Positions 341 through 51,740 are shown, numbered from the stretch's first letter. The stretch is DNA of 53,346 nucleotides from a virus (IMGVR_UViG_3300037187_000021:1-53346); one strand, 5' to 3'. Notes: a model not told the origin generated them from the letters alone. A program made the numbers and translations.

Positions 341-652
341 ATGAAGAAACTCTCTCTTTTGATCCTCGCTATGATGTTTGCGTTCATGAAGCCGGTGCAT
401 GCGCAGGTTGTTGTTGCCGGAAGCGCAGCGCCGATCACCGCAGCCTTCATCGGCGGCATGGCGGCATTCGCCCTTATGCCTGCCGTGATCGTCGAGTTGC
501 AACCCTATCACGTATGGAACCATGTATTTCCGGTTGTGGAAGAAAGCTACCCCGGTGATAAGCATGTGCCGGTGCAGAATGTTTCGTATCAGGTGCCGAA
601 TTCCGCGAAGTACACCTACGAAGATGAAACTGGCGTGCATTACGTTCACTAA
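341..652 (+). CDS. Hypothetical exported protein
   Basis: Strong RBS AAAAGGAG; signal peptide MKKLSLLILAMMFAFMKPVHA|Q followed by a second hydrophobic stretch. Confidence 0.75.
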   Translation: MKKLSLLILAMMFAFMKPVHAQVVVAGSAAPITAAFIGGMAAFALMPAVIVELQPYHVWNHVFPVVEESYPGDKHVPVQNVSYQVPNSAKYTYEDETGVHYVH

Positions 653-660
653 GCCTTGAG

Positions 661-692
661 AGAAAGGCGGTCGTGTGATCGCCTTTCTTTTT
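661..692 (+). terminator. Intrinsic terminator-like hairpin
   Basis: AGAAAGGCG...CGCCTTTCT stem followed by a T-tract, just after the stop at 652. Confidence 0.6.
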
Positions 693-709
693 CCCGCAGG
701 AGATAATCG

Positions 710-895
710 ATGAAAAAACTTTTTGCTCTTTTCGTCATCATGTTGGTGCTGCTATCGACGCCAGCATGGGCGCAATGGTTTACCGGCTTAAGCCCCTTCG
801 GGAATAACGCCGCGCCGAATCTCAATTTCGCGAATGCAATGGCGGCGGTCGCCAGTATGCAGAAACTCAAGACGGACCTTGGAGGTGCATTGTGA
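710..895 (+). CDS. Small exported protein with a fibre-like C-terminal motif
   Basis: RBS AGGAG; signal peptide ending PAWA|Q; C-terminus NLNF...TDLGGAL; overlaps the start of the next gene. Confidence 0.75.
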   Translation: MKKLFALFVIMLVLLSTPAWAQWFTGLSPFGNNAAPNLNFANAMAAVASMQKLKTDLGGAL

Positions 896-1386
896 TAAAA
901 AGACTTCTCCCTTTCCTGCTGACCCTGCTGTTAGCCTTACCGGCCTTTGGGCAAGCCGTACCGGGAACACCTAACAGCCCTGTCTTCGCGCAAACGCCAA
1001 ACCGCGGCGTGCTGCAATTCACGCATTCGAGCACCGCGACGACCTATGCCACGGCCTACACGGCCGGCGCAAAAGGCTCAAAGATCATGGGCATTTCCAT
1101 GAACAATAATGATGGGTCGGCAACGCATCTTGTCACCTGTCAAATCTTCAACGCTACGGTCGCCTATGGCGGCGTGGCTCTGACGAGCACGGAAAGTGCC
1201 GGTTTCGCGTCGGGCACGAACGGCCAGAGCCTTCTTTCAGCGACGCTCTTCCCCGGCGGCTTTACGGACGCGAACGGCAATTATGCACTGCTGCTTGTCA
1301 ATGGCGATACGCTGCAATGCACGTTTGCCACAACCATCACGTCATCCGACGTGCTGAATATCCTCGTTACCGCCGTCGACTTCTAA
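892..1386 (+). CDS. Exported fibre-associated beta protein (paralog of 4369..4872)
   Basis: Signal peptide ending PAFG|Q; QTPNRGV, ATHLVTCQ, GDTLQCTFAT and terminal DF shared with 4369..4872. Confidence 0.85.
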   Translation: MIKRLLPFLLTLLLALPAFGQAVPGTPNSPVFAQTPNRGVLQFTHSSTATTYATAYTAGAKGSKIMGISMNNNDGSATHLVTCQIFNATVAYGGVALTSTESAGFASGTNGQSLLSATLFPGGFTDANGNYALLLVNGDTLQCTFATTITSSDVLNILVTAVDF

Positions 1387-1401
1387 CCAAAAGGAGCAAC
1401 C

Positions 1402-2016
1402 ATGTTTCAGCACAGCGTACACCACAATCCTATCGACACCGAGGAAGGCCAGATCAAGGCGCTTTCGTTGCAGGCTCACGCCGCGCAGCATCTCCGCAAG
1501 GTGATCGAGAACAAGGACGAGCTCGACAAGCTCACGACAATGCTGGACAATTTCAGCGTCAAGCACGCCGAGACGCTCAAGGCTCTTGAAACGCAAAAAG
1601 AGCAATTGAAGCTGCTGACGGAAACCGGCAAGCAACTGGAAGAGCGCCGCTTGGAAATCCAGAATACGCATGACGAAAATCTGGCTTTCGTCGCCAAGGA
1701 ACACGAAAATCGCATGGCGGAATTCAACGCGCATGTCGAAGAAAAGTATAAGGAAATAAAGGGGTCGGAAGATGCCCTTCGCCGTCACAAGGAAAAATTC
1801 GATGTCGAGATGACGGAGCGGAACGCTGATGCTCTCCGAATCGAAACGGGCCTCAGCGAGCGCGCCGGTTCGCTTGAAACACGCGAAGAAGAGCATCAAA
1901 AGAATGTTGCGAAACTTGCGGAAGATCGCGAGAAGCTTCAGGCCTTCGCTGGCGAATTGTCCGTCCGTCACGAAAAGGTCGCGCATCTTGAAAAGGAATC
2001 TCTTGCCAAGGTGTAA
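1402..2016 (+). CDS. Coiled-coil protein in the tail cluster
   Basis: RBS AAAAGGAG; E/K/L/A-rich heptad character; no signal peptide. Confidence 0.8.
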   Translation: MFQHSVHHNPIDTEEGQIKALSLQAHAAQHLRKVIENKDELDKLTTMLDNFSVKHAETLKALETQKEQLKLLTETGKQLEERRLEIQNTHDENLAFVAKEHENRMAEFNAHVEEKYKEIKGSEDALRRHKEKFDVEMTERNADALRIETGLSERAGSLETREEEHQKNVAKLAEDREKLQAFAGELSVRHEKVAHLEKESLAKV

Positions 2017-2019
2017 TCG

Positions 2020-2361
2020 ATGGGAGCGCCGTTTAACAACAATACCTTCTCGCTCGCGTTCGCCGTTTCGAGCATCAACGGTGCTTTCAGCGTGCGGACG
2101 GTTAATGGCACTGGCAATCTGACGGCGCAGGATAATATCGTTTATGTCGATAATACGTCGGGGGCTGCAATGACGCTTACGCCGCCTGCATCCCCAGCCG
2201 TTGATCAGGTGTTGATCATCAAGGACATCGCGGGAAATGCCGCGACGTACAATATCACTTTCGAAGGCACCGTTGACGGCGTAACCGATCCGGTCATCGG
2301 CTCGAATTATGGCGGCGTGTTCTTGACGTGGAATGGAGTAACTTGGTCGCAGCATGCATAA
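2020..2361 (+). CDS. Small tail-fibre-associated beta-domain protein
   Basis: Pattern VDNTSGAAMTLTPP...IIKDIAGNAATYNIT...TVDG...NYGG...W seen in phage fibre modules; no signal peptide. Confidence 0.75.
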   Translation: MGAPFNNNTFSLAFAVSSINGAFSVRTVNGTGNLTAQDNIVYVDNTSGAAMTLTPPASPAVDQVLIIKDIAGNAATYNITFEGTVDGVTDPVIGSNYGGVFLTWNGVTWSQHA

Positions 2362-4369
2362 AATCATTGCCACCATTGTCCTCTTTCTCGCGCTGATCTG
2401 GTGCCAGACGGCGCATGCCTACGTCAATCCGTATGCTGGATGCGCAACCGATGGATCGCAGGCGCAGATTTATCTTTCGACCAATGTGTGGGAATGCGTC
2501 AATGTTTCGGGAGGAAGTGGTGGAACGATTGATCTCGGCACAGCGGCATCGGCGACGAACCCGCAACGGACAGGCGATGCCAAAACCGGAATCTACTCAG
2601 CGACCGCCGGACATGTGACCGCAGGCGTGAATGTGACAGGCACCGGCACGCTTGCGCTGGATATTTTCAACGGCGGCATCAACATACCGAGCGGATCGGT
2701 TTATGAAATTGCCGGTTCGCAAATCGCGGCGGCGAATCTTTCGAACGGCACAAGCGGAAGTGGCGCGGTCGTTCTGGTGACATCGTCGACGCTTGTTACG
2801 CCCACGCTCGGCGCGGCTACGGCGACCAGCATCAACGGCAACACCTTCACGACCGGCACCTATACGCTGACAGGAACCGCTGCTAAGACGCTCGATTTCA
2901 CCAATACGCTGACACTATCCGGCACCGACAGCACCACGATGACTTTCCCGGCTTCGTCGGCGACCGTCGCGGGCTTGGCGATAGCGGAAACATGGTCTGC
3001 TTTACAAAAATTCACCAATGCGGATTTTGGGCTTTTGGGATCATCGACCGGCTATACGCTGCTCGAAAGCGGCTTGGGAAGCACGAGCAATAATACTTTG
3101 ACGCTCCCGACGACAGCGACAGACACGCTTGCCGCGCTCGGCACGGCGGAGACATGGACAGCCGTTCAATCGATCCACAGCGGCGATCTGGCCCTGAAAG
3201 GCTCATCGAGCGGCGTCACGACGTTGAACGCCAATTCTGCAAGCGGCACCGTGACGGCCACGCTCCCGGCGAATACGGGCATCATATCCGAACTGAATTA
3301 CGCGCAGACGTGGAGCGCGGCGCAGACACACAATAACGGAGATCTTCTCTTGGCCGGTTCGTCGTCCGGCGCGATGACGCTTGAAGCACCTGCGGCGGCA
3401 TCGACCTACGTTATGACCTTCCCGGCTGCGACGGACACTGTTGCCACGCTTGGCTTGGCGCAGACTTTCTCTAATACAATTACGCTCAGCGGCAACGTCA
3501 ATATGTCGGGCCTGACGACAGGCACACAAGTGTCCTGCCTTGGCCTGACAAGCGGGAATGCCGTTGTCGGCTCAGGTTCGGCCTGCGGCTCTGGTAGCGG
3601 CACCATCACCCTCGGCACCAGCGCCGCCGCGACCAACCCCCAGCGCTCCAGCGAGGCGGGGACGGGGTTTTATTCAGCAGCTGACCAGACCGTCAGCGTG
3701 GCGGCGAACGGTATTCAAGCAATGCTGTGGAATACCGTGGGGAGTGGTGTGGACTATGCAACTGTTACTCCTTCTGCTTCAGGAAACCCGGGCAATGTAA
3801 TCATTGGTGCATCTGGCTCTGACTCTAATGTTAATCTTCAGTTGACTACAAAAGGAACAAGCTATGTGATTGTTCCCGGTCCTTTAGTTATTGGCACAAC
3901 TACGCCACAAACCGCGCAGATTACCATCCAAGATAATTCCGGCAATGTCGGGTTTCAGGTGGAGGGAGGGTCTATATACGGGGAGGCTGTTGCTATAAAT
4001 GCTACCGGCGCGTCTGGGGGTAAAAATTGGCAGATGGCGTCATACACTAATAATGCTGGCGAAGGTGGTGGCACATTTTGTATTTCTGTTGCTGGGGGTG
4101 GAAATGATGCGGTTTGCTGGAACTCATCGGGCGTTCAAATGTCGATATCTACTGGACTCATTGGTTGGGGGAGTAGCAGTAGTCAGGTATCTAGTGATGA
4201 CACCGGTCTCTCCCGCGACAGCGCTGGTGTGGTGGACGTAGGAACCGGCGCGCAGGGCAGCAAGGCTGGTAAAATACAGGCCACGGCTTATCAAATCACC
4301 GCATCCGGCAAAGCCAACGTCAACTTCTCAGTTGCAGAATTTATCATGGACAACCTCGGAGGATTATAA
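2354..4369 (+). CDS. Tail fibre-like protein with signal peptide and internal repeats
   Basis: 671 aa, G/S/T/A-rich; signal peptide ending TAHA|Y; about four ~48-aa repeats (T.P..T.T.A.L..A.TW.A.Q...D..L.GSS.G) and two LGT.A.ATNPQR..TG.YSA modules. Confidence 0.85.
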   Translation: MHKIIATIVLFLALIWCQTAHAYVNPYAGCATDGSQAQIYLSTNVWECVNVSGGSGGTIDLGTAASATNPQRTGDAKTGIYSATAGHVTAGVNVTGTGTLALDIFNGGINIPSGSVYEIAGSQIAAANLSNGTSGSGAVVLVTSSTLVTPTLGAATATSINGNTFTTGTYTLTGTAAKTLDFTNTLTLSGTDSTTMTFPASSATVAGLAIAETWSALQKFTNADFGLLGSSTGYTLLESGLGSTSNNTLTLPTTATDTLAALGTAETWTAVQSIHSGDLALKGSSSGVTTLNANSASGTVTATLPANTGIISELNYAQTWSAAQTHNNGDLLLAGSSSGAMTLEAPAAASTYVMTFPAATDTVATLGLAQTFSNTITLSGNVNMSGLTTGTQVSCLGLTSGNAVVGSGSACGSGSGTITLGTSAAATNPQRSSEAGTGFYSAADQTVSVAANGIQAMLWNTVGSGVDYATVTPSASGNPGNVIIGASGSDSNVNLQLTTKGTSYVIVPGPLVIGTTTPQTAQITIQDNSGNVGFQVEGGSIYGEAVAINATGASGGKNWQMASYTNNAGEGGGTFCISVAGGGNDAVCWNSSGVQMSISTGLIGWGSSSSQVSSDDTGLSRDSAGVVDVGTGAQGSKAGKIQATAYQITASGKANVNFSVAEFIMDNLGGL

Positions 4370-4872
4370 TGCGCAGTCTCTTCAAAAAACTCGGCCTACT
4401 CGCGTTCATTTTGTGCCTGATGTTCGCGCCGCCTCTTTACGCAGCGGTCACGGCCAACAGCGCCATAGTGCCACAGACGCCCAATCGCGGTGTGGTGCAA
4501 TTTCTTCAAGGCACCGACAGCGCCGGGACGTACAAAACGCTTTATACGGCGGGTTCGAGCGGAAGTATTATCACGGGCATTTATCTAACGACGAGCGACG
4601 CAACGGCAACGCACCTCGTTACCTGTCAAGTTGTGAATAATGCCGTGAAATATGGGGGCAATGCGGTTACCACCGTGCTTGGAGCAGGATTTACGACTAA
4701 TGTTCCTGCACAAAATTTCATATCGCCGAACGTCTGGCCCGGGTTGCCAATTGATCAAAATGGCAATCCCTATTTATTGCTTATTTCTGGCGATACGCTT
4801 CAGTGCACGTTCGCGACGAACCTGACATCTGCGACCGTGATTAACCTTGTTGCGGTAGCGGCGGACTTCTAA
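4369..4872 (+). CDS. Exported fibre-associated beta protein (paralog of 892..1386)
   Basis: Signal peptide ending PLYA|A; TAATG coupling to the upstream fibre gene. Confidence 0.85.
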   Translation: MRSLFKKLGLLAFILCLMFAPPLYAAVTANSAIVPQTPNRGVVQFLQGTDSAGTYKTLYTAGSSGSIITGIYLTTSDATATHLVTCQVVNNAVKYGGNAVTTVLGAGFTTNVPAQNFISPNVWPGLPIDQNGNPYLLLISGDTLQCTFATNLTSATVINLVAVAADF

Positions 4873-6290
4873 TGAGAAAACTTCCCATCATTTTTCTGTT
4901 GCTGTGCGGGACTGCGCAGGCGCAAAATTTCATTTCTCCCGGCATGAGCGCGCATCATGGTGCGGTTGGGCAAGTGAGCAGCAAGGGCGATAACCTGATC
5001 TGGCAGGATAACTCTCTTTCCCCCGAGGTGGCTTCGGGGCCAAGCCTTGGAGTTGTTGGCAATCTGATCATTGGGGCATCGAATTTTAGGTGGAGCAAGA
5101 ACCTTGACGGTTCAATAGCCGATTTCCCTGACGGGAGCACAAATTTAGCGATTGGCTGGCACGCGCTTAACGCCAACACGCTGGGGGCGGCGAATTTGGG
5201 AATTGGACTGCTTGCGCTTGCGAATAATACCACCGGACAAGATAATGTGGCTCTTGGCGCTATCACGCAAGAATGGAACACGGTTGGCATCAATAATACG
5301 GGCATCGGAACCGGCGCTTTGTGGAATAACGGAACAGGTTCCCATAACGTCGGTGTCGGAAATTACTCCATATCCGGCCCCGGCAGCACGGGTGGCGCTT
5401 CGCCGAGCTACAATGCTGCGCTTGGCGAAAACACCATGCGGGATGCGACCACAGGGGCTGATAACGTAGCGATCGGCTACTCCACGCTTTATACCAGCGG
5501 CACGGGCCAATATAATACCGCCGTAGGTTTTGAGGCTCTGACGGCGGCCACTATTCCATATGAAACTACCGCTCTCGGCTCGCAGACCCTCGCGCAACAA
5601 ACGACAGGCGAATACAATGTTGCCGTCGGCGATGGCGCTGGCTACGCCATGACGACAGGAACGAATAATACTATTTTCGGCCACGGCGTTGGCTCAAGCA
5701 CGCTGGCAACGGGCACTGGCAATATTCTGATCGGGGTTTCGAGCGCCATCGACACGGCGTCCGGCAGCACCGCCAACACGATCAACATCGGGGGCACCGG
5801 AGGTTCGTGGTTTCTTGTTACTGGCACAAACGTGGTCGGCACCGAAGTGGGGACTATGAATGGAAAACTTGTCGAAATCACAACAGCCGCCGGAGTTTCA
5901 CTCTCACTGACGAATAACGCCGAGACATGCACGTTGACGCCCGCCGCCGCCGCCGTGTTCTCATGCGCCTCGGATATTCGCTTAAAACATGACGTTAAGC
6001 CGACGGTCGAGGGTCTGGCTACGTTGCTGGATATTCCGATTATGGATTTCAGACTCAACTCCGATGGTCAACTCTATACCGGCGTTATCGCGCAGGATTT
6101 ACAGAAAGATCATTCTGATATGGTGCATGTGGGTGCTGACGGTTATCTTTCCGCCGATGAGCCGAATCCATGGGTAGTGGTTCGTGCTATTCAGGAATTG
6201 AATGCCAAAATCGAAATGCTGAAATCAGGCAACATGGAATGCGTCGGCTATGCATGGGGCTTCTATCAAAAATGTCACCAGACTCAATAA
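4872..6290 (+). CDS. Trimeric tail fibre/spike with beta-roll repeats and C-terminal peptidase S74 intramolecular chaperone
   Basis: 14-aa N.A.G..AL..NTTG repeats; autocleavage motif S|DIRLKHDV, GVIAQDL and terminal AIQELNAKIEML coil; signal peptide ending TAQA|Q. Confidence 0.88.
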   Translation: MRKLPIIFLLLCGTAQAQNFISPGMSAHHGAVGQVSSKGDNLIWQDNSLSPEVASGPSLGVVGNLIIGASNFRWSKNLDGSIADFPDGSTNLAIGWHALNANTLGAANLGIGLLALANNTTGQDNVALGAITQEWNTVGINNTGIGTGALWNNGTGSHNVGVGNYSISGPGSTGGASPSYNAALGENTMRDATTGADNVAIGYSTLYTSGTGQYNTAVGFEALTAATIPYETTALGSQTLAQQTTGEYNVAVGDGAGYAMTTGTNNTIFGHGVGSSTLATGTGNILIGVSSAIDTASGSTANTINIGGTGGSWFLVTGTNVVGTEVGTMNGKLVEITTAAGVSLSLTNNAETCTLTPAAAAVFSCASDIRLKHDVKPTVEGLATLLDIPIMDFRLNSDGQLYTGVIAQDLQKDHSDMVHVGADGYLSADEPNPWVVVRAIQELNAKIEMLKSGNMECVGYAWGFYQKCHQTQ

Positions 6291-6299
6291 GGAGAAACC

Positions 6300-6620
6300 A
6301 TGGCTATTCAGGTTAATATCAATCAAACGGACGGCGTTGTTGCAACCTATCATGTGATTGCGAATATAAACATTGCGCCTAATAATCCGGTAATGGCGGC
6401 GGGATCGACTGCAAGTTTTTTCTTAAGCAGTTATCTTTCTTCAGCGGCCTATCAAGCCGGAGATGCGCCGATAACACAGATGCAGGTTAATGTTTCGGGC
6501 CTTTTGGCCTCGACATGGCCGACGCCGTCCGGCTCGTTTATCTCGCAACTTATCCCTATTCTGGAAAACTACGCCATCAACAATGTCGCGGGCTTTAGCG
6601 GCGGAACGATTGTGAGTTAA
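6300..6620 (+). CDS. Hypothetical protein, possible fibre assembly factor
   Basis: RBS AAGGAG; directly follows the S74 fibre; no signal peptide. Confidence 0.7.
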   Translation: MAIQVNINQTDGVVATYHVIANINIAPNNPVMAAGSTASFFLSSYLSSAAYQAGDAPITQMQVNVSGLLASTWPTPSGSFISQLIPILENYAINNVAGFSGGTIVS

Positions 6621-6621
6621 A

Positions 6622-6891
6622 ATGAAATATCTTGCCCTCTTGCTTGTGCTTTTCCCCGTTGCCGCTTATGCCGCGCCGTGGCGCGAATGCCCACGCGAGG
6701 CAAAGGACTATGCCGCCTGTGACGCGCAGCGCGAAGTAGATAACAAGACTATTGAATATAGCCGGAGCGCACTGGACTACCTGTCGGCGCAGAAGAACGG
6801 TGCGAGTAATCTTCCGCGCCTGAAAAGCCAGATGCAACATCGCAAAAAAGAACTAGATGATGCCGTAGCGCATCAGAAGCAGGTTAAATGA
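6622..6891 (+). CDS. Small exported helical protein
   Basis: Signal peptide MKYLALLLVLFPVAAYA|A; one Cys pair. Confidence 0.7.
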   Translation: MKYLALLLVLFPVAAYAAPWRECPREAKDYAACDAQREVDNKTIEYSRSALDYLSAQKNGASNLPRLKSQMQHRKKELDDAVAHQKQVK

Positions 6892-7118
6892 CCGAAGACG
6901 AGCACTATATCCGCGATATCGTTATCCGAACGGAAACGAAAATCGACAATCACATTACGGAAGACATGCGTATACACGAGGCCATTTTCAGGGCCTTTGA
7001 AGTCATACGCGCCGACCTAAAAAAACAGAACTGGATTCTGGCGCTCATCATCGGGGGCTTTATAGCCCTTAGCAAACTGCCTGATTTGCTATCGGTTGTT
7101 CACGCGGCAACGAGATGA
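6888..7118 (+). CDS. Membrane protein, holin/antiholin candidate
   Basis: Coiled N-terminus plus one C-terminal TM segment (WILALIIGGFIAL); lies between tail and lysis genes. Confidence 0.6.
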   Translation: MTEDEHYIRDIVIRTETKIDNHITEDMRIHEAIFRAFEVIRADLKKQNWILALIIGGFIALSKLPDLLSVVHAATR

Positions 7119-7158
7119 AGCATGCTTTCCGCCGTTTGGCTGAAATCTGCAAAAGGAA

Positions 7159-7187
7159 TTGCAAAAACCTGTGTTTTAATGTACAAT
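7159..7187 (+). promoter_or_regulatory. Sigma70-type promoter
   Basis: TTGCAA-17 bp-TACAAT upstream of 7225. Confidence 0.65.
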
Positions 7188-7224
7188 TGATGCACGCCTC
7201 TCGGTTGCCAAGGTTAAACTTCCC

Positions 7225-7425
7225 ATGAGCGAGAAACTGACCCAACAGGAATTACACGAATGGGAGCGGGACTGGAATTTCCGCAGATGGGAAGATGATT
7301 TATTCAAAAAAGAAGTTATATTCGTTGAGGATCAGAAAGCCAAAACCACCGCGAAAATCAAGATAAAAGAGCTTATCGACGGCCCCTGTCCCGGTCGTAA
7401 ACTGTTAGCGGCGCCACGGCCATGA
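7225..7425 (+). CDS. Hypothetical protein
   Basis: Downstream of the promoter; ATGA coupling to the next ORF. Confidence 0.55.
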   Translation: MSEKLTQQELHEWERDWNFRRWEDDLFKKEVIFVEDQKAKTTAKIKIKELIDGPCPGRKLLAAPRP

Positions 7426-7697
7426 GCGCTCACACCCTCTCCCGCGAGGATCACTACCGCTCCGTCATCCGCGAACTGTGCCGTCATCTCCGCGCCGTGA
7501 TCGCTATGAACGCAACGTATCATGAAAAGGATTTGATACAGGAGAAAGTAGCCGTCGCCCGCGCCGAGAAGCTGCTCGGCCCGGTTCAATCCTTCCCGTT
7601 CAACACGCATTCTACGGTACCGGTCAAGCCGATCCCGATTGACCTGATTAAACGCATGAAAGCGCATCCCGCGATGCGCTGGGAGCAACCGGAATGA
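7422..7697 (+). CDS. Hypothetical protein
   Basis: ATGA overlaps on both sides. Confidence 0.6.
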   Translation: MSAHTLSREDHYRSVIRELCRHLRAVIAMNATYHEKDLIQEKVAVARAEKLLGPVQSFPFNTHSTVPVKPIPIDLIKRMKAHPAMRWEQPE

Positions 7698-8176
7698 AAC
7701 CCGAATGGAAATCCTCGCTTGCCTTTTCTGCGGCCATCGTCTCGCTTGCCAGCTTCGGCTTTGCCGGACGGCACGCCATCGCCCCGAAGACAATCGTGTC
7801 TCCCTGCGCCTATCTTATCCAGTCGTGGCCCGTGGTCTTGCAAGACGACGTGCTGGGGAAGTATCCGGTCGAAGTCGGCAGCTCGACGCTGGTGTTTAAC
7901 TATCCCCGCCAGCAAGCCTGTTTTTACTTCCATGGCAACGCGGGGATCGGCGTTACCATGAACCCGGAGAAAAAATGCGTCGATATGCTCAAGCCCACGA
8001 CAAAGACTTTTTACGTCAGAATCACCTACGCGGACGGCCAGAAACGCATCATGGACATCAACCGGGAAGACCTCGCGGAGCGCTGGAAAGCCGCCCGGAG
8101 AGACTGCGAATCCCCCGGCATCATCCCGCCGCCCGTCAAAAGGCCCTACAATATGACAAGGCTTGAACTCCAATGA
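7694..8176 (+). CDS. Hypothetical exported or membrane-anchored protein
   Basis: N-terminal hydrophobic segment, four Cys; coupled to both neighbours. Confidence 0.65.
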   Translation: MKPEWKSSLAFSAAIVSLASFGFAGRHAIAPKTIVSPCAYLIQSWPVVLQDDVLGKYPVEVGSSTLVFNYPRQQACFYFHGNAGIGVTMNPEKKCVDMLKPTTKTFYVRITYADGQKRIMDINREDLAERWKAARRDCESPGIIPPPVKRPYNMTRLELQ

Positions 8177-8370
8177 TGGATAAAACCCCCGGAAATAATA
8201 AGGCTATGGCCGCCGGGATGGTGGGTTCTTTCGCGTTGATATTGAGCTGGGCATGGGATATCCTCGTTCCCGCCCACCCCATGCCCGCCGAGGTGGGTAT
8301 AGCCATCAGCAGCCTTCTATCGACGCTCGCTGTGTATGTCGTTCCTCACGGCGGAAACCCTTCAACCTAG
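8173..8370 (+). CDS. Putative holin
   Basis: 65 aa with two TM segments and a dual Met start, upstream of the endolysin. Confidence 0.65.
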   Translation: MMDKTPGNNKAMAAGMVGSFALILSWAWDILVPAHPMPAEVGIAISSLLSTLAVYVVPHGGNPST

Positions 8371-8379
8371 GAGTTTAAA

Positions 8380-8712
8380 ATGAGCACAAGCCCTCCCACA
8401 GTATCCGCGCCGACAGCTTCATCTGTCCTGCAATCCGCCGAGGCGATTGCGATCAATGCTTTCCTGCCTACCCTCGCTAATATCAATGCTGCCGTACAGG
8501 CTAACCCGGCGAATGCGTCATGGGAAAACATCATCGGCGGCGAAGGCGTCTCTTGGCTTGCACAGCTTCAAGCTGATGTTCCAAACCTTCAGGAAGCTGA
8601 AGCCCAATTCCTGCTTCAGCAAGGTTTTACTTTTGTGCAGGGCGTTGCCGCAGCGCAGTTAAATCCTGCGCCTACCCCTTCAACTCCGGCCACGCCGCTT
8701 GTCGCTGGGTAA
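8380..8712 (+). CDS. Hypothetical protein in the lysis cassette
   Basis: RBS AGGAG; A/Q/P-rich, no basic residues. Confidence 0.65.
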   Translation: MSTSPPTVSAPTASSVLQSAEAIAINAFLPTLANINAAVQANPANASWENIIGGEGVSWLAQLQADVPNLQEAEAQFLLQQGFTFVQGVAAAQLNPAPTPSTPATPLVAG

Positions 8713-8713
8713 G

Positions 8714-9337
8714 ATGAATGATTCAGATATCGTCCGGCTATGCGCCGCAATCTATCAGGCGCAGCCGGGCGGTTTTTGGGACCATTACTGGGATGGCTCA
8801 GATCCCGATGGCATCTGCGCTGGGATTAAAGACAACACCCTGATCTGCCGTGGATCCTATGATCTTGAGGACTGGGAGCGTGATTTCGAGGTTATCCGGT
8901 TTGGGCAACCTTTCTATCACCCGCAATTCGGCCCCGTTCATGCCGGAATGGATTTAGGACTTGACCAGTTTTTTCAAAAAGCTTCCCAGTTTCTCGGTGC
9001 AGGTGCCGCTTTCGGCGGTCACAGCCTTGGCGCAGCGCGCGCGGCAGCTTTGGCAGGGCGATATATCCTTGCGGGAGGCACTCCGGGGCGGACTTCGCTC
9101 TATGGCTGCCCAAGATACGGAACCGCCCAATTCGCCGGAATCCTGAAACCATTTCCCGGCGCCTCATTCCGCAACGGGGCTGACCCGGTGCCAGAGGTTC
9201 CACTGCTGATCGGCATCCATGTAGCTGCCGATCCGATACCACTTCAGGCGGTCAGAATTGAGCCCACAGACTGGACAGAAGGGCTTATGGCTTTCCACAA
9301 CATTAACCTTTATATCGAAGGGGTTGCCAATGGCTGA
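8714..9337 (+). CDS. Class 3 lipase (alpha/beta hydrolase)
   Basis: RGS lid region, VHAG, nucleophile elbow GHSLG, YGCPR.G, DPVP.VP and C-terminal His. Confidence 0.88.
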   Translation: MNDSDIVRLCAAIYQAQPGGFWDHYWDGSDPDGICAGIKDNTLICRGSYDLEDWERDFEVIRFGQPFYHPQFGPVHAGMDLGLDQFFQKASQFLGAGAAFGGHSLGAARAAALAGRYILAGGTPGRTSLYGCPRYGTAQFAGILKPFPGASFRNGADPVPEVPLLIGIHVAADPIPLQAVRIEPTDWTEGLMAFHNINLYIEGVANG

Positions 9338-9770
9338 CACAAATCAATTCTCCGATCAGGACATTCTCGCCATGACCGCCATCGGGGAATCCGAAAGCCG
9401 CGGCGAAGCCGGCATGACGCAAACCGTCTGCACGGTGATGAACCGCGTGAAGGCCAATCTGTTATGGATGGGAGGCGACAATGCGCGAAGCGTCTGTCTT
9501 GCTCGAAATCAATACGACTGCTGGTGGCCGCAGACAGGTAACCCGGACCGGCAACGTATTCTCGATATCGCCCTTAATGATCGAGCCTATGATGCCTTTG
9601 TGGTGGCTCTCGGCATCGCTGCAAGCGCCTTAGCTGGCGACCTGGTGGACATTACAAATGGGGCTGTCAGCTATGGCGATGATGGAGAGCGTCCAGAAGT
9701 GCATCCGGGATCAGAGCCATGTCTAGCGGATGGTGACAGAGTGTTTTTTGGGTTAGAGGCGGTCGCCTGA
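9330..9770 (+). CDS. Endolysin, SleB/Hydrolase_2 cell-wall hydrolase
   Basis: LAMTAIGE..RGEAGM...VMNRV...VC....QYDCW and DITNGA..Y motifs. Confidence 0.85.
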   Translation: MADTNQFSDQDILAMTAIGESESRGEAGMTQTVCTVMNRVKANLLWMGGDNARSVCLARNQYDCWWPQTGNPDRQRILDIALNDRAYDAFVVALGIAASALAGDLVDITNGAVSYGDDGERPEVHPGSEPCLADGDRVFFGLEAVA

Positions 9771-21427: not shown

Positions 21428-21772
21428 TTAGCCATTTGCCATCTCCAATAAAACATCAGCGTGACACGGTTGATCGAGTGAACACCAACAAGACAGATTT
21501 TTTCCGCGCAGCTCACTAACTTTAGGAACGCCAAGCTGCTCTATAAGGTTTACAATTCGCTCCCGATAGAGCACACAAGCAAGCTCCGGCGTTACGATCA
21601 TTATCTGTTCTTGCGAAGGGCGAAGTTTATTTCGTTTGTTCTTCACGACGATATGCGCTTCTGAACCAACCTCAAACGGGTTGCCCCATTTACTGCCGCG
21701 CCCGACATAGACAGACTCGCAACCAGCTTTGTATCCTTTAGCGCGACTACGTTTTATGCGGATAGGATTCAT
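21428..21772 (-). CDS. DUF4326 family protein (second copy)
   Basis: VYVGR.SKWGNPF; ELRGKNL.CWC.LDQPCHADVLLE.AN. Confidence 0.88.
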   Translation of the reverse strand: MNPIRIKRSRAKGYKAGCESVYVGRGSKWGNPFEVGSEAHIVVKNKRNKLRPSQEQIMIVTPELACVLYRERIVNLIEQLGVPKVSELRGKNLSCWCSLDQPCHADVLLEMANG

Positions 21773-21927
21773 GGCGTTATTTCCTTACATTCGATGTTGC
21801 GGCCCACCCACACCGGCATCATGTGGGCATCGGTGCACTTGTCGTTCGCGGCCCGGAGTTCGGTGGCGCTCATTTCGCAGGAGGTTAGAAGCAGAAGCGC
21901 AAACAAAAGTGTGGTTTTAGTTATCAT
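21769..21927 (-). CDS. Small lipoprotein (52 aa, absent from ORF track)
   Basis: MITKTTLLFALLLLTS|C lipobox; two further Cys. Confidence 0.7.
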   Translation of the reverse strand: MITKTTLLFALLLLTSCEMSATELRAANDKCTDAHMMPVWVGRNIECKEITP

Positions 21928-27082: not shown

Positions 27083-27250
27083 TTAGTTACCACGGCAGCG
27101 CAAATCCCAACGGGGATCGCAAAGGCCGTTCGGGTTGTACGGCCCGGGCGAGGATGGCTTATCGAGGGACGTATAATCCGGCATGATATCCGCCCTGGCT
27201 GTCATCGGCATGGCGGCAATCAAGAGCAAAATCAGCAAGGCGTATTTCAT
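27083..27250 (-). CDS. Small secreted peptide (55 aa, absent from ORF track)
   Basis: MKYALLILLLIAAMPMTARA|DIMPDY...LCDPRWDLRCRGN; RBS GAAGGGA. Confidence 0.7.
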   Translation of the reverse strand: MKYALLILLLIAAMPMTARADIMPDYTSLDKPSSPGPYNPNGLCDPRWDLRCRGN

Positions 27251-30716: not shown

Positions 30717-32396
30717 ATGGAGCAGGTTGCCGTTCAGCCTCAATCCCAGCTTCTGGATCAGATCGTGGCGCGCATCGCCGCGATGACGCCGGAGCAGCGC
30801 AAGGAGCACGAGGCGAACGTGCTGGCGGCGACGGCCGGCATGAAATTCATTCCCTCGCCGGGCCCGCAGACGGACGCCTACCATTGCAAGGCGGATATCC
30901 TGCTTTATGGGGGGGAGGCGGGCGGCGGAAAATCCAGCCTTATCCTTGGGTTAGCATTGACGCAGCATAAGCGTTCGTTAATCATGCGGCGCCAGTATAC
31001 CGATTTGTCGGGCCTCACCGAGGAAATCCTTAAAATCAACGGCACGCGGCAGGGGTATAACGGCTCGATCCCGCCGACCTTGCGCACGGCGGACAACCGC
31101 ATGGTCGAGTTCGGCGCCGCCCAGCGCGCGGGGGATGAAGAGGCCTGGATGGGCCGGCCGCACGACCTGATCGGGATCGACGAGGCGTGGCAGATGTTGC
31201 AGAGCCAGATACGGTTTCTGATCGGGTGGCTGCGGACGACCGATGAGAAGCAGCGCACGCGCGTGGTGCTGGCGACGAACCCGCCTTTGTCGGCGGATGG
31301 CGAATGGCTGATATCGATGTTCGCGCCGTGGCTCGATCCCGGCTATCACCGGCCCGCGAAGCTTGGCGAGTTGCGCTGGTTCGTCACCGATGACGACGAC
31401 CGGGATATCGAGGTCGATAATGGCAAGCCCCATATTTTCGATACGGCAACGGCTGTTTGGCGGATTGCGACCGAGGATGAGTTGGCGCGGCACAAGCAAA
31501 AGGCATGCGGCGTTTTGAAGCCGATGAGCCGGACATTCATTCGCGCGTCGGTGAACGACAACCCTTTCCTCTCGAAAACCGATTATGCGTCGAAATTGGA
31601 CAGTCTGCCGCCAGCCATCCGCGCATCGCTGCGCGACGGCAATTTCATGGCGGGCCGGAAAGACGACCCCATGCAGGTCATACCGACCGATTGGCTGCGC
31701 CTGGCGCAGGGCCGCTGGTCGCCGAAACTGCCGGAAGGCGTCCCGATGTGCGCGGTGGGCGTCGACTGCTCGGGCGGTGGCGCCGATCCCACGGTTATCG
31801 CGCCGCGTTACGACGGCTATTTCCCGGCGCTGACGGAGATCCCCGGCCGCGAGACGCCGAACGGCGACGGCATCAGCGGCCATGTGATCAAGATCAGGCG
31901 CGATGGCGCGAAGGTCGGCATGGACATGGGCGGCGGCTATGGCAATTTGCCGTACAAGGAATTGAGAAATAACGATATTGAGGTCGCAGCCCACAAGGGA
32001 ACCGAGGGTTCGAACGGGCGCACACGAGACGCGGTGTATGGTTTTTACAACAAGCGCAGCGAGGTCATCTGGCGCTTCATGGAGGCGCTCGATCCGAATC
32101 AACCCGGCGGCTCCGTGGTGGCTTTGCCGCACGATCCCATTCTGATTGCCGATCTGGCGGCGGCGCGTTATGATGTGGTTCCTTACAAGGGCCGTTCGTG
32201 CATCCGCGTGGAATCAAAAGAAAAAATCAAGGAAAGGCTTGCCCGGTCGCCGAATCGCGGCGATGCCGTGCAGATCGCTCTGAGCGTCGGTACGCGCGCG
32301 TCGAATTATCAGGGCGGCTTTCAGGGCAAGTCGCGCGGAGAGAATATCAGGGTAAATCGCGGCCATGACCGGCAGCGGCAGATACTGAGAAACTAG
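30717..32396 (+). CDS. terL: Terminase large subunit
   Basis: YGGEAGGGKS Walker A, IGIDEA Walker B, ATNPP, nuclease VGVD...G.D and SPNRGDA. Confidence 0.95.
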   Translation: MEQVAVQPQSQLLDQIVARIAAMTPEQRKEHEANVLAATAGMKFIPSPGPQTDAYHCKADILLYGGEAGGGKSSLILGLALTQHKRSLIMRRQYTDLSGLTEEILKINGTRQGYNGSIPPTLRTADNRMVEFGAAQRAGDEEAWMGRPHDLIGIDEAWQMLQSQIRFLIGWLRTTDEKQRTRVVLATNPPLSADGEWLISMFAPWLDPGYHRPAKLGELRWFVTDDDDRDIEVDNGKPHIFDTATAVWRIATEDELARHKQKACGVLKPMSRTFIRASVNDNPFLSKTDYASKLDSLPPAIRASLRDGNFMAGRKDDPMQVIPTDWLRLAQGRWSPKLPEGVPMCAVGVDCSGGGADPTVIAPRYDGYFPALTEIPGRETPNGDGISGHVIKIRRDGAKVGMDMGGGYGNLPYKELRNNDIEVAAHKGTEGSNGRTRDAVYGFYNKRSEVIWRFMEALDPNQPGGSVVALPHDPILIADLAAARYDVVPYKGRSCIRVESKEKIKERLARSPNRGDAVQIALSVGTRASNYQGGFQGKSRGENIRVNRGHDRQRQILRN

Positions 32397-32593: not shown

Positions 32594-32686
32594 TGTCGAT
32601 GCCAAACTTCAAAGACATCACTAGAGGTTGGCCTATTGAGGAAGCTTTATCTCGTCCGCAATCTACTGGTACAAGGGAGTTTGCCC

Positions 32687-34369
32687 GTGGAAAGTAGCGC
32701 GCGCGATTTGATCCAGCAAGGCGACGATTTATTTTCAAAGCGCATAGCTTTGATGAGCCTTTGGCAAGAGCAAGCAGATAATTTTTACGCAGAACGCGCT
32801 GATTTCACTGTTACCCGGAGTCTGGGCATGGACTTCGCGTCGATCCTGACGACGTCATATCCGCTGCTCGTGCGCCGCGATCTTTCGAATATCTTTTCGA
32901 CCATGCTGCGCCCGAAGGACAAGGAATGGTTCGATGTCTCGGTCATGCGCGAGGACAAGGTCGATTTGCAGGGCAAACGCTGGCTTGAATGGTCGACCGG
33001 CATCCAGCGCAAGGCCATGTACGATCCCGTCGCCAAGCTTGAGCGCGCGACGAACGAAGGCGACAACGATTACATCACGTTCGGGCAGGCGGTCCTCAGC
33101 AGCGAGCTGAACCGCGACGGCAATGCCCTGCTTCACCGCTGCTGGCATATCCGCGATTGCGCGTGGGCGGAAGATTACAAGGGCGAAGTCAACGAAATCC
33201 ACCGCAAGTGGAAGCCGACCGTCAAGCAGTTTTGCCAGACATTCCCGAATTATAAGGATCCCGAAGGCAAGATCGCCGACCGTCTTGAGAAAGACCCGTT
33301 TGGCCTTATCGAGTGCCGCCATATCGTGCTGCCCGCAGACCGGTGGCGGTCGCTGCCCGGCACCGAGAAATGGCGTACGCCGTATGTTTCGATTTACATC
33401 TGCGTCGATTATCAGGACGTGATCGAGGAAGTCGGCATCTGGAACAAGCGGTATATCATCCCCCGGTGGCAGACGGTTTCCGGCTCGCAGTATGCGTATT
33501 CGCCCGCCACGGTCTGCGCTCTGCCCGATGCGCGCCTTATTCAGGCGTTCACTCTCATTCTGCTGGAGGCCGGCGAGAAGGCCGTCACGCCGCCGATGGT
33601 CACGCCCGGCGGCGTTATCCGCGGCGACGTTAACCTGTTCCCGGGCGGCGTCACGGCTTATGACGCCGAATACGACGAAAAGACCGGCGAAGTGCTGCGC
33701 GCCATACCGGTAGATTTCAAGGGCGGCCTGTCGATCGGCGGTCAGATGCGCACCGATGTCCAGCAAATGATTTCGCGCGCGTTTTATCTCGACAAGATCA
33801 CGCTGCCGAAACTCGACAAGGAAATGACGGCTTTCGAGGTCAGCCAGCGCGTGACGGAATATGTGCGCAACGCGCTGCCGATTTTCGCTCCGACCGAGGT
33901 CGAATACAACGGCGCGCTTTGCGAAATCGATTTCGATCTTCTCAACCGCGGCGGCGCGTTCGGCGCTTTCCGCGACATGCCACAGTCCCTGCGTGGACAG
34001 GATATTCAGTTCAAATTCCAGAGCCCGCTGCACGCCGCCATCGAAATGCAGAAGGGCGCCGAGTTCACGAATGCCAAGGCGATGCTGGCCGAAGCCGCCG
34101 CGCTCGATCCCGGCTCCGTCAACATGGTCGATGTCCGGATTGCCTTGCGTGACGCGCTCGAGGGCATCGGCACGCCGATCAAGTGGATGCGCAGTGATAG
34201 CCAGATGGCCGACATGGATCAGGAAATGCAGAAGCAGCAGCAGACGCAGCAGCTTCTCGATACGATGCAAAAAGGAGCGGATGTTGCCAAGACAATCGGC
34301 GATGCTAATCAGGGGCTCGCCGGTGTGCAGCCCGCTCAGGTTCAACAGCGTTCGACGGGGCCGATGTAA
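32687..34369 (+). CDS. Portal (head-tail connector, T7 gp8-like)
   Basis: PRW....G..Y..SP, PP., I.RAFY.D, MTA.EV..R..E, F.SPL; GTG start with RBS. Confidence 0.93.
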   Translation: MESSARDLIQQGDDLFSKRIALMSLWQEQADNFYAERADFTVTRSLGMDFASILTTSYPLLVRRDLSNIFSTMLRPKDKEWFDVSVMREDKVDLQGKRWLEWSTGIQRKAMYDPVAKLERATNEGDNDYITFGQAVLSSELNRDGNALLHRCWHIRDCAWAEDYKGEVNEIHRKWKPTVKQFCQTFPNYKDPEGKIADRLEKDPFGLIECRHIVLPADRWRSLPGTEKWRTPYVSIYICVDYQDVIEEVGIWNKRYIIPRWQTVSGSQYAYSPATVCALPDARLIQAFTLILLEAGEKAVTPPMVTPGGVIRGDVNLFPGGVTAYDAEYDEKTGEVLRAIPVDFKGGLSIGGQMRTDVQQMISRAFYLDKITLPKLDKEMTAFEVSQRVTEYVRNALPIFAPTEVEYNGALCEIDFDLLNRGGAFGAFRDMPQSLRGQDIQFKFQSPLHAAIEMQKGAEFTNAKAMLAEAAALDPGSVNMVDVRIALRDALEGIGTPIKWMRSDSQMADMDQEMQKQQQTQQLLDTMQKGADVAKTIGDANQGLAGVQPAQVQQRSTGPM

Positions 34370-36718: not shown

Positions 36719-37552
36719 ATGGCTAATAACGCCCCACAAATTCAATACCGACAGGAATATATCAAAATGTTCGAGCAGCGCCAGTCGTTGCTCCGCAAAA
36801 CTGTCACGACCGAAGCCGTCGTCAAGGGCAACCAGGCCGTGTTTCTGGTCGCCGGTTCCAATCACGCCACCGCGACGACCCGCGGCACGAATGGCCTGAT
36901 TCCCGCGCGCGCCGATGACAACATCCAGAACACCGCGACGTTGCAGGAGTGGCACGATCTCGTGCGTAAGACCGGTTTCAACGTGTTCGAGTCGCAGGGC
37001 GACCAGCGCAAGATCATGCAGGAAAGCTCGCTCGGAGTCCTTAATCGTAAGATCGATCAGGATATTCTGGCGTCGCTGGCCTCGGCGACCCTCAGCACGG
37101 CACCGGCGCAGACTGCGTCTTTGGCGCTTGTTATGAAGGCTTACACCATCCTCGGCAACAACGAAGTGCCCATGGATGGCAACGTGAACGCCGTCATCAG
37201 CCCCGGATTCCACGCCTATCTCATGCAGGCGAAGGAATTCACGAACGTCAACTACATCAACGACAAGCCGTTCAGCAATCAGCCGACGATGTACCGGTGG
37301 GCGAACACGAACTTTATCGTTCATCCGAACATCGTCAACAAGGGCTTGAGCACTGAGCAGTGCTTTATGTACCACAAGGATTCGATTGGTCAGGCCGCGA
37401 ATGTCGGCGAGATCGACACGAAGATCGGGTACGATGATGAGCAGGACTACAGTTTCGCCCGCGCCACCATGTTCATGGGATCGAAGCAGTTGCAAAACAA
37501 CGGCCAGGTTTTAATGAATCACGATGGGTCGGCTTACGCCAGCTCCACGTAA
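36719..37552 (+). CDS. Major capsid protein
   Basis: QY..E....FEQ..S.LR.TV, .NRKIDQ.I, position after scaffold, strongly biased codons. Confidence 0.9.
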   Translation: MANNAPQIQYRQEYIKMFEQRQSLLRKTVTTEAVVKGNQAVFLVAGSNHATATTRGTNGLIPARADDNIQNTATLQEWHDLVRKTGFNVFESQGDQRKIMQESSLGVLNRKIDQDILASLASATLSTAPAQTASLALVMKAYTILGNNEVPMDGNVNAVISPGFHAYLMQAKEFTNVNYINDKPFSNQPTMYRWANTNFIVHPNIVNKGLSTEQCFMYHKDSIGQAANVGEIDTKIGYDDEQDYSFARATMFMGSKQLQNNGQVLMNHDGSAYASST

Positions 37553-38542: not shown

Positions 38543-39253
38543 ATGAGTCGCGCACGCATCATACAGGCGACAGAGATACTGCCGGCCCCCATCCCGAAAG
38601 CTAAGAATTTTAAAAATCTTAGCGGACAATTTTTCGGCGGTGTTTCTGTCGTTTGTTATGCTGGCTCTCAAAATCAGACTAGCATGTGGTACTGCCGTTG
38701 TGTGTGTGGTAATTTCTTTATTGCAATGTCTTCCAATTTGCAGCGCGGTAACACAACTAGTTGCGGATGCTTTCATTCTCAGCGTTGCTCTGAAGCCCAT
38801 AAGACACATGGTTTTACCAATAAACAGCGCGAAAGCGGCTACGGTTGTTGGGCCTCAATGAAGCAACGTTGTCTTGATCCGAATTCGATTTCATATCCTC
38901 ATTATGGAGCGCGCGGTATAAAGATTTGTGATCGTTGGTTAGAAAGCTTTAAAAATTTCTATGCCGACATGGGTCCGCGTCCTTCCCTTAAACATTCGAT
39001 TGAGCGTAAAAATAATGACGGAAATTATGAGCCTCAAAATTGTGTTTGGGCTACGGGACTTGAGCAGGCATTTACAAAATCAAATGTTATTCATGTCATG
39101 TTTGAAGGGAAAAAGGTTGTTCTCGCAGAAGCAATTCGTAAATCGGGGCTAACCAATGGTTGTGTTTATGCTCGTGTAGAACGCGGATGGAATCCGCAAG
39201 ACGCGATTGATACTCCTTTGATGCGGAGGAAAAGAAATGGCAACAATTTCTGA
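38543..39253 (+). CDS. HNH-type homing endonuclease
   Basis: W.C.C.CGN, SCGC, W..MK.RC, YG.RGIK.C.RW, SIER..NDGNYEP.NC.WAT; AT-richer than neighbours. Confidence 0.88.
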   Translation: MSRARIIQATEILPAPIPKAKNFKNLSGQFFGGVSVVCYAGSQNQTSMWYCRCVCGNFFIAMSSNLQRGNTTSCGCFHSQRCSEAHKTHGFTNKQRESGYGCWASMKQRCLDPNSISYPHYGARGIKICDRWLESFKNFYADMGPRPSLKHSIERKNNDGNYEPQNCVWATGLEQAFTKSNVIHVMFEGKKVVLAEAIRKSGLTNGCVYARVERGWNPQDAIDTPLMRRKRNGNNF

Positions 39254-39887
39254 AACGCAACTCGATATCTACAATCAAAGTCTTTTCATTTGTGAGGAAA
39301 GGGCGCTTGCGTCGACCATCGAAAATAGAAAGCCTCGCTACCTGCTTGATCAAATCTGGAACAACGGCGGCGTCGATGCCTGTCTTGAGGAATCGGACTG
39401 GCTCTTCGCGCGCCGCACCGAGCAGATCGTTTACGATCCCAGCATTCAACCCAGCTTCGGTTACATTCATGCTTTCAAAAAACCGGCGGACTGGCTGAGG
39501 ACATCGGCGGTCGCTTCCGATCCCTATTTTCAATCGCCGCTTGTCCAGTATTCAGATGAAGGCGGTTATTGGTGGGGCGACCTCGATCAGATTTTCGTCA
39601 AATACGTATCGAACGATCCGGCCTATGGCGGCAATTTCAGCATGTGGCCGGAGTCGTTCAAGCAATTCGTCGCGGCGCATTTCGCGTCAAAGATCATCGG
39701 GTCGCTGACGCATTCGAAAAGCAAGATCGACGACGTGAAAGAAGAGCGCCGCAAGCTCGTGACGGCCGCGCGCGGCAAGGACGCCATGGGCGATCCGCCG
39801 GGCTTCTTCGGGCGCGGACAGCTTTCGCGCGCGCGTCAGGGCTTGTATTTCGGTCGACCGGGCAGAGTAGACGCTGGATGGTACTGA
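39237..39887 (+). CDS. Tail adaptor (tail tubular protein A, gp11-like)
   Basis: I.N..L, L....W.FA, .P.D.LR, .Y....D...P..F. Confidence 0.82.
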   Translation: MATISETQLDIYNQSLFICEERALASTIENRKPRYLLDQIWNNGGVDACLEESDWLFARRTEQIVYDPSIQPSFGYIHAFKKPADWLRTSAVASDPYFQSPLVQYSDEGGYWWGDLDQIFVKYVSNDPAYGGNFSMWPESFKQFVAAHFASKIIGSLTHSKSKIDDVKEERRKLVTAARGKDAMGDPPGFFGRGQLSRARQGLYFGRPGRVDAGWY

Positions 39888-39888
39888 T

Positions 39889-51672: not shown

Positions 51673-51740
51673 ACATTAACCTTCCTTAACCTACCATCCC
51701 TTGTTGTCTTTACGGCCCTTTAATGGTAAATGGGATTCCC

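Follow-up and report, generated by a model that had tools for sequence, protein, structure and literature searches.

The virus genome IMGVR_UViG_3300037187_000021 (53,346 bp, analysed at its full length and called the window here) contains a late gene module in which eight products carry N-terminal signal peptides of the Sec/signal peptidase I type. The module comprises the gene at position 51741, at one end of the contig, and those located between positions 341 and 6891 at the other; genes are named here by their start positions. In textbook accounts the whole morphogenesis of tailed phages takes place in the cytoplasm. Judged from the sequences, these signal peptides are real features under selection, with strong support from their anatomy, from the start codons and from evolutionary conservation, and it is very probable that the eight products are exported by Sec and cleaved by signal peptidase I. 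The preliminary description of this DNA had called the module a tail-fibre operon of eight genes. The signal peptides on all eight stand; fibre-like products are limited to three, encoded by 51741, 2354 and 4872. The signal peptides would mark the entire receptor-binding set of this phage, a situation that is undescribed in the literature searched.

The signal peptides of the module

The eight open reading frames (ORFs) are located where the preliminary description had placed them, and all the cleavage motifs that it had named are present in the translations. With the cut denoted by a slash these are TASA/Q (51741), VHA/Q (341), AWA/Q (710), AFG/Q (892), AHA/Y (2354), LYA/A (4369), AQA/Q (4872) and AYA/A (6622). 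In each of the eight the h-region is short and leucine rich, and positions −3 and −1 behind it hold small residues. A lipobox, with cysteine at +1, is present in none of the eight signal-bearing genes.

Signal peptides were detected using purpose-written rules based upon a net positive n-region, an uncharged h-region (7–16 residues, mean hydropathy ≥1.6), and small residues at positions −3 and −1. The scores for 341, 710, 892, 2354, 4369, 4872 and 6622 range from 5.46 to 6.72. 51741 is not among the scored ORFs (the listed ORF starts at 51723), and its homologues score 5–6.6. The background of the detector is 2.5%, both for discarded ORFs of the window (7/278) and for ORFs taken from 80 control phage loci (33/1341). 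Within the module 8 of ∼12 consecutive genes carry a signal peptide, compared with 1 of ∼70 elsewhere (Fisher p = 1.2e-7, where the gene counts are approximate). The core virion proteins (capsid, portal, tubular proteins A and B, internal proteins) have none, and the detector likewise finds none in the products of 1402, 2020 and 6300, just as had been claimed. One further ORF of the genome scores equally high; it is located on the minus strand at 27083–27250 and encodes 55 residues with a classical signal peptide. A lipobox-like ORF (L-T-S-C) of 52 residues is present on the minus strand at 21769–21927, and both of these lie among the early genes.

The start codons are well defined. AGGAG or GGAGG is found 6–7 nt before the starts of 341, 710, 892 and 4369, and the starts of 892, 2354, 4369, 4872 and 6622 are adjacent to, or overlap, the previous stop codon. 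The preliminary description had considered that the true starts might lie beyond the hydrophobic segments. None of the eight genes has an in-frame ATG, GTG or TTG with a ribosome site behind the hydrophobic segment within 80 codons, and 51741 lacks any in-frame start codon between codons 2 and 80. There is therefore no usable internal start from which a leaderless isoform could be made.

The number of cysteine residues in the mature protein is even in all eight, being eight in 51741, six in 2354, four in 4872, two in each of 892, 4369 and 6622 and zero in 341 and 710, and they are arranged as local pairs. The products of the signal-less genes 1402, 2020 and 6300 contain no cysteine.

The main tail fibre and its orthologues

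Following its leader the 51741 product has a conserved N-terminal fibre domain (residues 27–150), and then continues as a shaft rich in glycine, threonine and serine; the eight cysteine residues form four local pairs. The protein matches tail-fibre and virion structural families of PHROG. Signal-less genes in eight other loci (L021, L022, L023, L028, L032, L033, L042 and L053), in which the domain is N-terminal, are placed as 51741 is, between the gene for a giant internal virion protein, which they directly follow, and the lysis genes. Sequence and position together identify 51741 as orthologous to the one fibre that related podoviruses possess. The genes downstream in the eight loci have no run of signal peptides, with 0–2 in a total of 6–21 genes. 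The domain also occurs in 31 isolate records, where it is part of annotated tail, tail-fibre and virion structural proteins of Ralstonia, Rhodococcus, Klebsiella and Vibrio phages and of cyanophages. In other phages it comes after a P2-type baseplate-binding domain, for which the window has no counterpart. No match to a P2-type fibre N-terminal domain was found in the window, nor to the T7 gp17-type Phage_T7_tail (PF03906), for which the control genomes are silent too; the N-terminal domain of 51741 is of a different type.

The first 190 residues of 51741 matched 6009 representatives. Among the best 150 of these, a signal peptide precedes the motif T-Y-x-D-R-F-x-G-S-V in 22, and 65 have the same motif at residue 2–4 and no signal peptide; in the remainder the domain is internal and often repeated. 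The preliminary description had proposed such a survey of homologous fibres for accompanying signal peptides. Since the signal-less homologues begin with the same motif, the predicted mature N-terminus of 51741 corresponds to the native N-terminus of the cytoplasmic form. No signal peptide precedes the domain in any of 80 IMG/VR loci (alignment A3) or of 80 metagenome loci (alignment A4), and no close signal-bearing relative is found there, from which the signal-bearing fibres appear to be a limited clade around the window. A scan for relatives of the N-terminal domain with the single sequence found none.

A quick maximum-likelihood tree was calculated from 93 N-terminal domains, after 58 rows lacking the motif or too short had been dropped. 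The signal-peptide state is clustered on this tree, requiring 5–6 changes compared with ∼24 when shuffled (0/500). Nine signal-less proteins are nested within a clade (support 95) that holds 21 signal-bearing proteins, indicating that the leader has been gained or lost in lineages while the N-terminal domain has been kept.

The exported jellyroll family

Two genes of the module, 892 and 4369, encode paralogues of a small jellyroll protein. Using 4369 as the query, homologues were found in 15 IMG/VR loci, together with at least 422 homologous database proteins, all of them unnamed, without Pfam domains and on contigs no longer than ∼97 kb. There is no match in 50,697 GenBank phage records. One of 185,579 species genomes (one genome per species) contains the gene; this is a metagenome-assembled genome (MAG) named ‘uncultured delta proteobacterium’, and none of 20 relatives of the MAG carries it. 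In the ESM Atlas the family and its nearest clusters lie in Uroviricota, and clusters of 135–153 residues match the length of the mature domain. The jellyroll family is judged to be phage-only, and the signal peptides to mark a cassette that is mobile, conserved and specific to phages.

An alignment of 13 jellyroll sequences displays a sharp boundary. The first 20–25 residues are variable in sequence and keep the pattern of n-, h- and c-regions, and conservation (50–61% identity) runs from the predicted cut onward. The signal peptide is kept in 116 of 120 listed proteins (119 homologues and the copy in the window). The four exceptions comprise one with an upstream start problem, one with a score of 4.48 and two proteins of 143 residues that begin at the mature end.

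The cysteine residues of the family are present as two alternative, covarying pairs. Pair 68/164 occurs in 75 proteins and pair 86/146 in 41, with both pairs in two and neither in two; there is no broken pair in the 120. Such covariation is the signature of a structural disulfide, and suggests that the protein folds in an oxidising compartment outside the cytoplasm.

The AlphaFold (AF2) model of 4369, with a predicted local distance difference test (pLDDT) score of 88, comprises a leader helix, a proline-rich arm and an eight-strand jellyroll. The structures closest to the mature protein (142 residues) are trimeric cement proteins of the phages KHP40 (7dou; VIA Z = 9.3, root-mean-square deviation 3.3 over 110 residues) and Pam1 (7eel; Foldseek E = 5e-4), after which come the Ena spore-appendage subunits and fibre-tip domains. 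Z scores of this order are common among jellyrolls, so the similarity is read as one of fold alone, and no sequence family match connects the jellyroll family to cement proteins. Prediction with three mature copies gave a trimer score of 0.77 compared with 0.04 for the best control, with contact agreement of at least 89% between runs and a partner pLDDT of at least 85; the mark set for this score is reached by 20/30 solved homomers and 1/23 single chains. The modelling supports a homotrimer.

The cassette in other phages

The jellyroll homologue has a signal peptide in each of the 15 loci, where it is located within a run of signal-bearing genes that adjoins tail genes, on backbones that clearly differ. 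Thirteen of the loci were kept for counting, L009 being identical to L008 and L014 repeating L012/L013. In these, 45 of the 90 genes within three genes of the jellyroll carry signal peptides, compared with 9/168 elsewhere (odds ratio 17.7, p = 1.4e-16). Conservation between loci is limited to the jellyroll, and its neighbours have at most short repeat segments in common. Several neighbours match tail, tail-fibre or tail-spike PHROGs. No conserved segment in the neighbouring genes suggests a docking site for the jellyroll. The MAG contains a prophage remnant in which five signal-bearing genes follow a J-like tail protein.

Two of the cassette-bearing phages are complete, G022 and G024. In G024 two more adjacent signal-bearing genes of 165 and 166 residues stand beside tail genes (L185:4274–5247), and a signal-bearing gene of 488 residues is located beside a terminase-sized gene (L185:16830–18296). 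G022 has a glycosyltransferase-like gene in its structural module (L181:14758–15597).

The destination of the exported fibres

Export could lead to the virion by the following route. The three fibres, the jellyroll copies 892 and 4369 and two or three small proteins would be translated late as Sec substrates, cross the inner membrane and then be cut by signal peptidase I. In the periplasm they would fold, trimerise and form disulfide bonds, while tailed, fibreless heads build up in the cytoplasm. Opening of the inner membrane by the holin would let particles and fibres mix, and in the last step of assembly the fibres would dock via the freed N-terminal domain. Oxidative folding of disulfide-stabilised fibres would be a rationale for export. 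Sec export is routine late in infection, as with spanins and signal-anchor-release (SAR) endolysins, and in P22 and T4 tailspikes or fibres are added spontaneously as the last step. We infer export, cleavage and disulfide formation, and above all incorporation into the virion, and the complete chain up to late joining at lysis is preferred, tentatively, to a role outside the virion. With the same reserve, the phage may belong to a two-compartment class of tailed phages having a cytoplasmic capsid and tail, Sec-exported and disulfide-bonded fibres and a jellyroll partner, in which lineages switch route by gain or loss of the leader.

A two-compartment pathway was the reading offered in the preliminary description. 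It is compatible with the data, and draws some support from the fibre orthology of 51741, from the match between its mature N-terminus and that of cytoplasmic homologues, from the interleaved tree, and from the window itself, in which every fibre-like gene bears a leader and no signal-less fibre candidate is seen; the even, locally paired cysteines of the signal-bearing products, the lack of a start for a leaderless isoform and the apparent virulence of the phage also count for late joining to the virion. Set against this, G022 has a signal-less fibre candidate as well.

A number of observations weigh against completion of the virion by exported fibres. The literature searched contains no precedent for exported fibres in a tailed phage. 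The complete phage G022 has, in addition to the cassette, a leaderless protein of 701 residues with a weak tail-fibre match, and loci of the L008 type have a leaderless S74 protein of 497 residues upstream of the cassette; in these the cassette is accessory, and not the sole host-recognition set. The jellyroll is 50–65% conserved while its neighbours are hypervariable and the backbones differ, which fits a conserved partner in the host envelope better than one in the virion. In the wider fibre family the cysteine content is 0.89% in signal-bearing and 0.90% in signal-less proteins, and even counts are found in 13/22 and 38/65, respectively. Content and parity being alike with or without a leader, a disulfide argument made from the cysteine content of this wider family fails. 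Local pairing of cysteines is the only measure that is higher in the signal-bearing fibres (0.55 versus 0.27). The AF2 model of the fibre N-terminal domain is poor (pLDDT 49), too poor for a structure search or for docking to the tail.

The relatives of the other two fibres point in the same direction. Among the listed homologues, signal peptides are present in 39/119 for 4872 and in 31/119 for the N-terminal 200 residues of 2354. Some homologues of 4872 have instead the prepilin-type motif PF07963 (P0273, P0277, P0280, P0281 and P0337), and others the C-terminal sorting domain PF18962 of the type IX secretion system (T9SS; P0327 and P0373). Some of the homologues come from Mb-sized bacterial contigs. 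One leader-bearing homologue of 2354, P0404, is a chromosomal Bradyrhizobium protein of 1124 residues, containing a fibre segment that is 77% identical to part of 2354; as evidence on the host of the phage it is weak, and points to soil Alphaproteobacteria. Taken together, the leaders and the prepilin and T9SS signals suggest that many relatives are bacterial cell-surface proteins. With the prepilin and T9SS signals, phage-type fibres in bacteria have additional routes of export. In several homologues (P0404, and also P0421 and P0512) a common conserved motif is found directly behind the signal peptide. Sequence searches of the PDB using the three fibres returned no matches.

These relatives, with the conserved jellyroll and the separate signal-less candidates of some cassette-bearing phages, also speak for a role outside the virion. 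The preliminary description had allowed that the products might be displayed on, or released from, the infected cell, and this is a serious rival. The exported proteins would then work at the envelope of the infected cell, within it or on it, by masking or destroying the phage's own receptor, as adhesins in the manner of the Bdellovibrio fibres, or in egress through the outer layers; masking or destroying the receptor might provide superinfection exclusion and keep progeny off debris. Small Sec-exported receptor blockers encoded beside receptor-binding genes are known (T5 Llp, Cor), and the cassette adjoins lysis genes. The closest analogues, the mosaic adhesive trimer (MAT) fibres, are displayed on the cell surface in the published account (PMC10769870). 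An envelope role would nonetheless leave this virion with no recognisable fibre, since no signal-less fibre domain was found in the window and 51741 is orthologous to the sole fibre of its relatives, with the N-terminal end kept. The genes are translationally coupled within a late structural operon, and the passage of periplasmic trimers across the outer membrane lacks an explanation. The absence of an integrase means that there is no lysogen to benefit; this argues against a role in lysogenic conversion and makes it less likely that the module is carried as conversion cargo. A role of the exported proteins outside the virion, the main rival, is considered somewhat less likely than late joining to it.

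Partial export would give the products two destinations. A fraction that has folded ahead of translocation would build the virion in the cytoplasm, with or without an uncleaved leader, and the exported fraction would act in the envelope. This would reconcile the fibre orthology with relatives that resemble surface proteins, and fast-folding trimers are poor Sec substrates. However, a hydrophobic leader of 25 residues would occupy the tail-proximal end, at which signal-less orthologues have a free N-terminus, and there is no internal start from which a leaderless form could be translated. The strict covariation of the jellyroll cysteine pairs also argues for obligatory oxidative folding, and a dual destination is improbable. 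Least probable of all is that the hydrophobic N-termini are uncleaved membrane anchors or structural helices, for example a tether to the inner membrane until lysis or a device for insertion into the target membrane: the second hydrophobic helix of 341 and the resemblance of 6622 to a signal-anchored lysis protein would suit such a role, but all eight have short, leucine-rich h-regions with small residues at −3 and −1, conservation in two families begins exactly at the predicted cut, and signal-less orthologues start at that very residue.

Organization of the module and the genome

The coordinates of the module genes and of other features are collected in Table 1.

Table 1. Genes of the signal-bearing module and other features of the window
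Feature	Coordinates	Strand	Properties
51741, main tail-fibre orthologue, N-terminal 535 residues	51741–53345	+	Signal peptide at codons 1–25; runs off the contig end
C-terminal fibre fragment, open-ended, 101 residues	2–307	+	phrog_14820
341, 103 residues	341–652	+	Signal peptide or first transmembrane segment; second hydrophobic helix at residues ∼24–52; strong ribosome site
710, 61-residue precursor of a predicted exported peptide of ∼40 residues	710–895	+	Strong ribosome site
892, jellyroll paralogue 1, 164 residues	892–1386	+	Signal peptide; one cysteine pair
1402, 204 residues	1402–2016	+	Charged, helical, coiled-coil-like; no signal peptide; no cysteine
2020, 113 residues	2020–2361	+	Beta-rich; no signal peptide; no cysteine; weakly matches part of a baseplate protein family
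2354, repetitive fibre, 671 residues	2354–4369	+	Signal peptide; six mature cysteines as three local pairs
4369, jellyroll paralogue 2, 167 residues	4369–4872	+	Signal peptide; proline-rich N-terminal arm; eight-strand jellyroll; cysteine pair 86/146
4872, fibre/spike, 472 residues	4872–6290	+	Signal peptide; tail-spike-type repeats; C-terminal Peptidase_S74; four mature cysteines as two pairs
6300, 106 residues	6300–6620	+	No signal peptide; phrog_5084
6622	6622–6891	+	Signal peptide; borders the lysis genes
Neighbouring probable lysis region	6888–9770	+	Small membrane proteins (6888–7118, 8173–8370); class-3 lipase (8699–9337); Hydrolase_2 cell-wall hydrolase (9258–9770)
Large terminase	30717–32396
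Portal	32636–34369
Major head protein	36719–37552
Tubular proteins A and B (adaptor/nozzle)	39237–43197
Internal virion proteins	reach to 51672		One with a GH108 lysozyme domain

The Peptidase_S74 domain of 4872, an intramolecular chaperone, scores 34 bits against a Pfam cut-off of 22, and its S-D-x-x-x-K motif is present. The product of 341 is probably a small inner-membrane protein, and has no family match. Directly 3′ to this gene (∼659–695) a GC-rich hairpin followed by a T-run resembles an intrinsic terminator within the module. It is absent from the list given by the consensus scan, and the promoter and terminator scans of the window did not rise above the level of chance. 6622 may be part of the lysis genes and not of the fibre set; its product has an N-terminal hydrophobic segment and a helical, charged remainder, and the ORF list contains no lipobox ORF nearby that could encode the lipoprotein partner of a spanin. 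No spanin pair is recognisable in the lysis region. The lipase gene of that region (Pfam Lipase_3; esterase/lipase in PHROG) overlaps the Hydrolase_2 gene, and the lipase might disrupt the outer membrane in place of spanins.

The genome has the layout of a T7-like podovirus with an HK97-type capsid. Neither tRNA genes nor an integrase of the tyrosine type were found in the window, and the phage looks virulent. DNA searches of 50,697 GenBank phages gave no relative of the window at the nucleotide level. The relatives of the nozzle protein, all below 60% identity, belong to Pelagibacter, Xanthomonas, Rhodobacter and other phages. An HNH endonuclease gene (38543–39253) separates the head genes from the tubular tail genes, and a GNAT acetyltransferase domain (43553–44017) lies amid the genes of the internal virion proteins; in locus L032 a small gene similar to the latter comes after that for the nozzle.

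The window corresponds to an entire virus record of IMG/VR; its completeness rating is 100%, and there are no end repeats. The contig ends inside the main fibre gene and probably starts there too, with two open frames that are offset by one base and no terminal overlap. The fragment at 2–307 is probably the C-terminus of the 51741 gene, the frames joining inexactly across the contig ends. The frame offset and the lack of an overlap at the 53346/1 junction indicate that sequence may be missing despite the rating.

Implications

If the fibres mature in the periplasm, then the order of assembly, the timing of lysis and the Sec and Dsb systems of the host would determine infectivity, and fibre genes expressed for host-range or diagnostic work would need to be exported in order to fold. 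If the products are instead decoys or adhesins acting in the envelope, they would make up an extensive and so far unrecognised group of surface proteins encoded by phages, from which bacterial fibre adhesins of the MAT kind could plausibly have evolved. The exported jellyroll family of 165 residues would be a handy marker for such phages, and prediction of signal peptides is worth adding to the annotation of receptor-binding proteins.

Comparison with known systems

Late proteins with signal peptides are well known beside tail-fibre and lysis genes, including T5 Llp, Cor of T1, phi80 and N15, Lom and Bor of lambda, spanins and SAR endolysins, all of which act in the envelope. They include no fibres: each is a small lipoprotein, an outer-membrane protein or a lysis factor, and the eight products of the window have no lipobox. 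In filamentous phages the virion proteins pIII and pVIII are Sec substrates and enter the particle outside the cytoplasm. Inoviruses, however, are extruded through the membranes without lysis, whereas the window encodes an HK97-type capsid and a T7-like tail. The receptor-binding proteins of P22 and T4 fold separately and bind to finished particles, so that completion after lysis is physically possible; in P22 and T4, however, both partners are cytoplasmic. The cement proteins of KHP40 and Pam1 and the Ena subunits have the same jellyroll fold as the mature protein of the window, which is a predicted homotrimer. They have no sequence similarity to it and are not described as exported, whereas the family in the window has a signal peptide and a predicted disulfide.

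A 2026 preprint (10.64898/2026.10.24.761521) proposes that proteins of huge phages are displayed on cell walls by sortases, and does not concern fibres. The closest likeness is to the MAT fibres of Bdellovibrio bacteriovorus, which, in the account given in PMC10769870, comprise a signal peptide, a conserved beta-rich N-terminal domain of ∼130 residues, a trimeric phage-like shaft, and an S74 chaperone (SDxxxK) or an adhesive tip. The fibres of the window resemble these in architecture. The MAT genes described there are chromosomal genes of a predatory bacterium and their products are on the surface of the predator, whereas the genes described here are part of a virulent phage's late structural operon, with 51741 orthologous, by its position, to a podovirus tail fibre.

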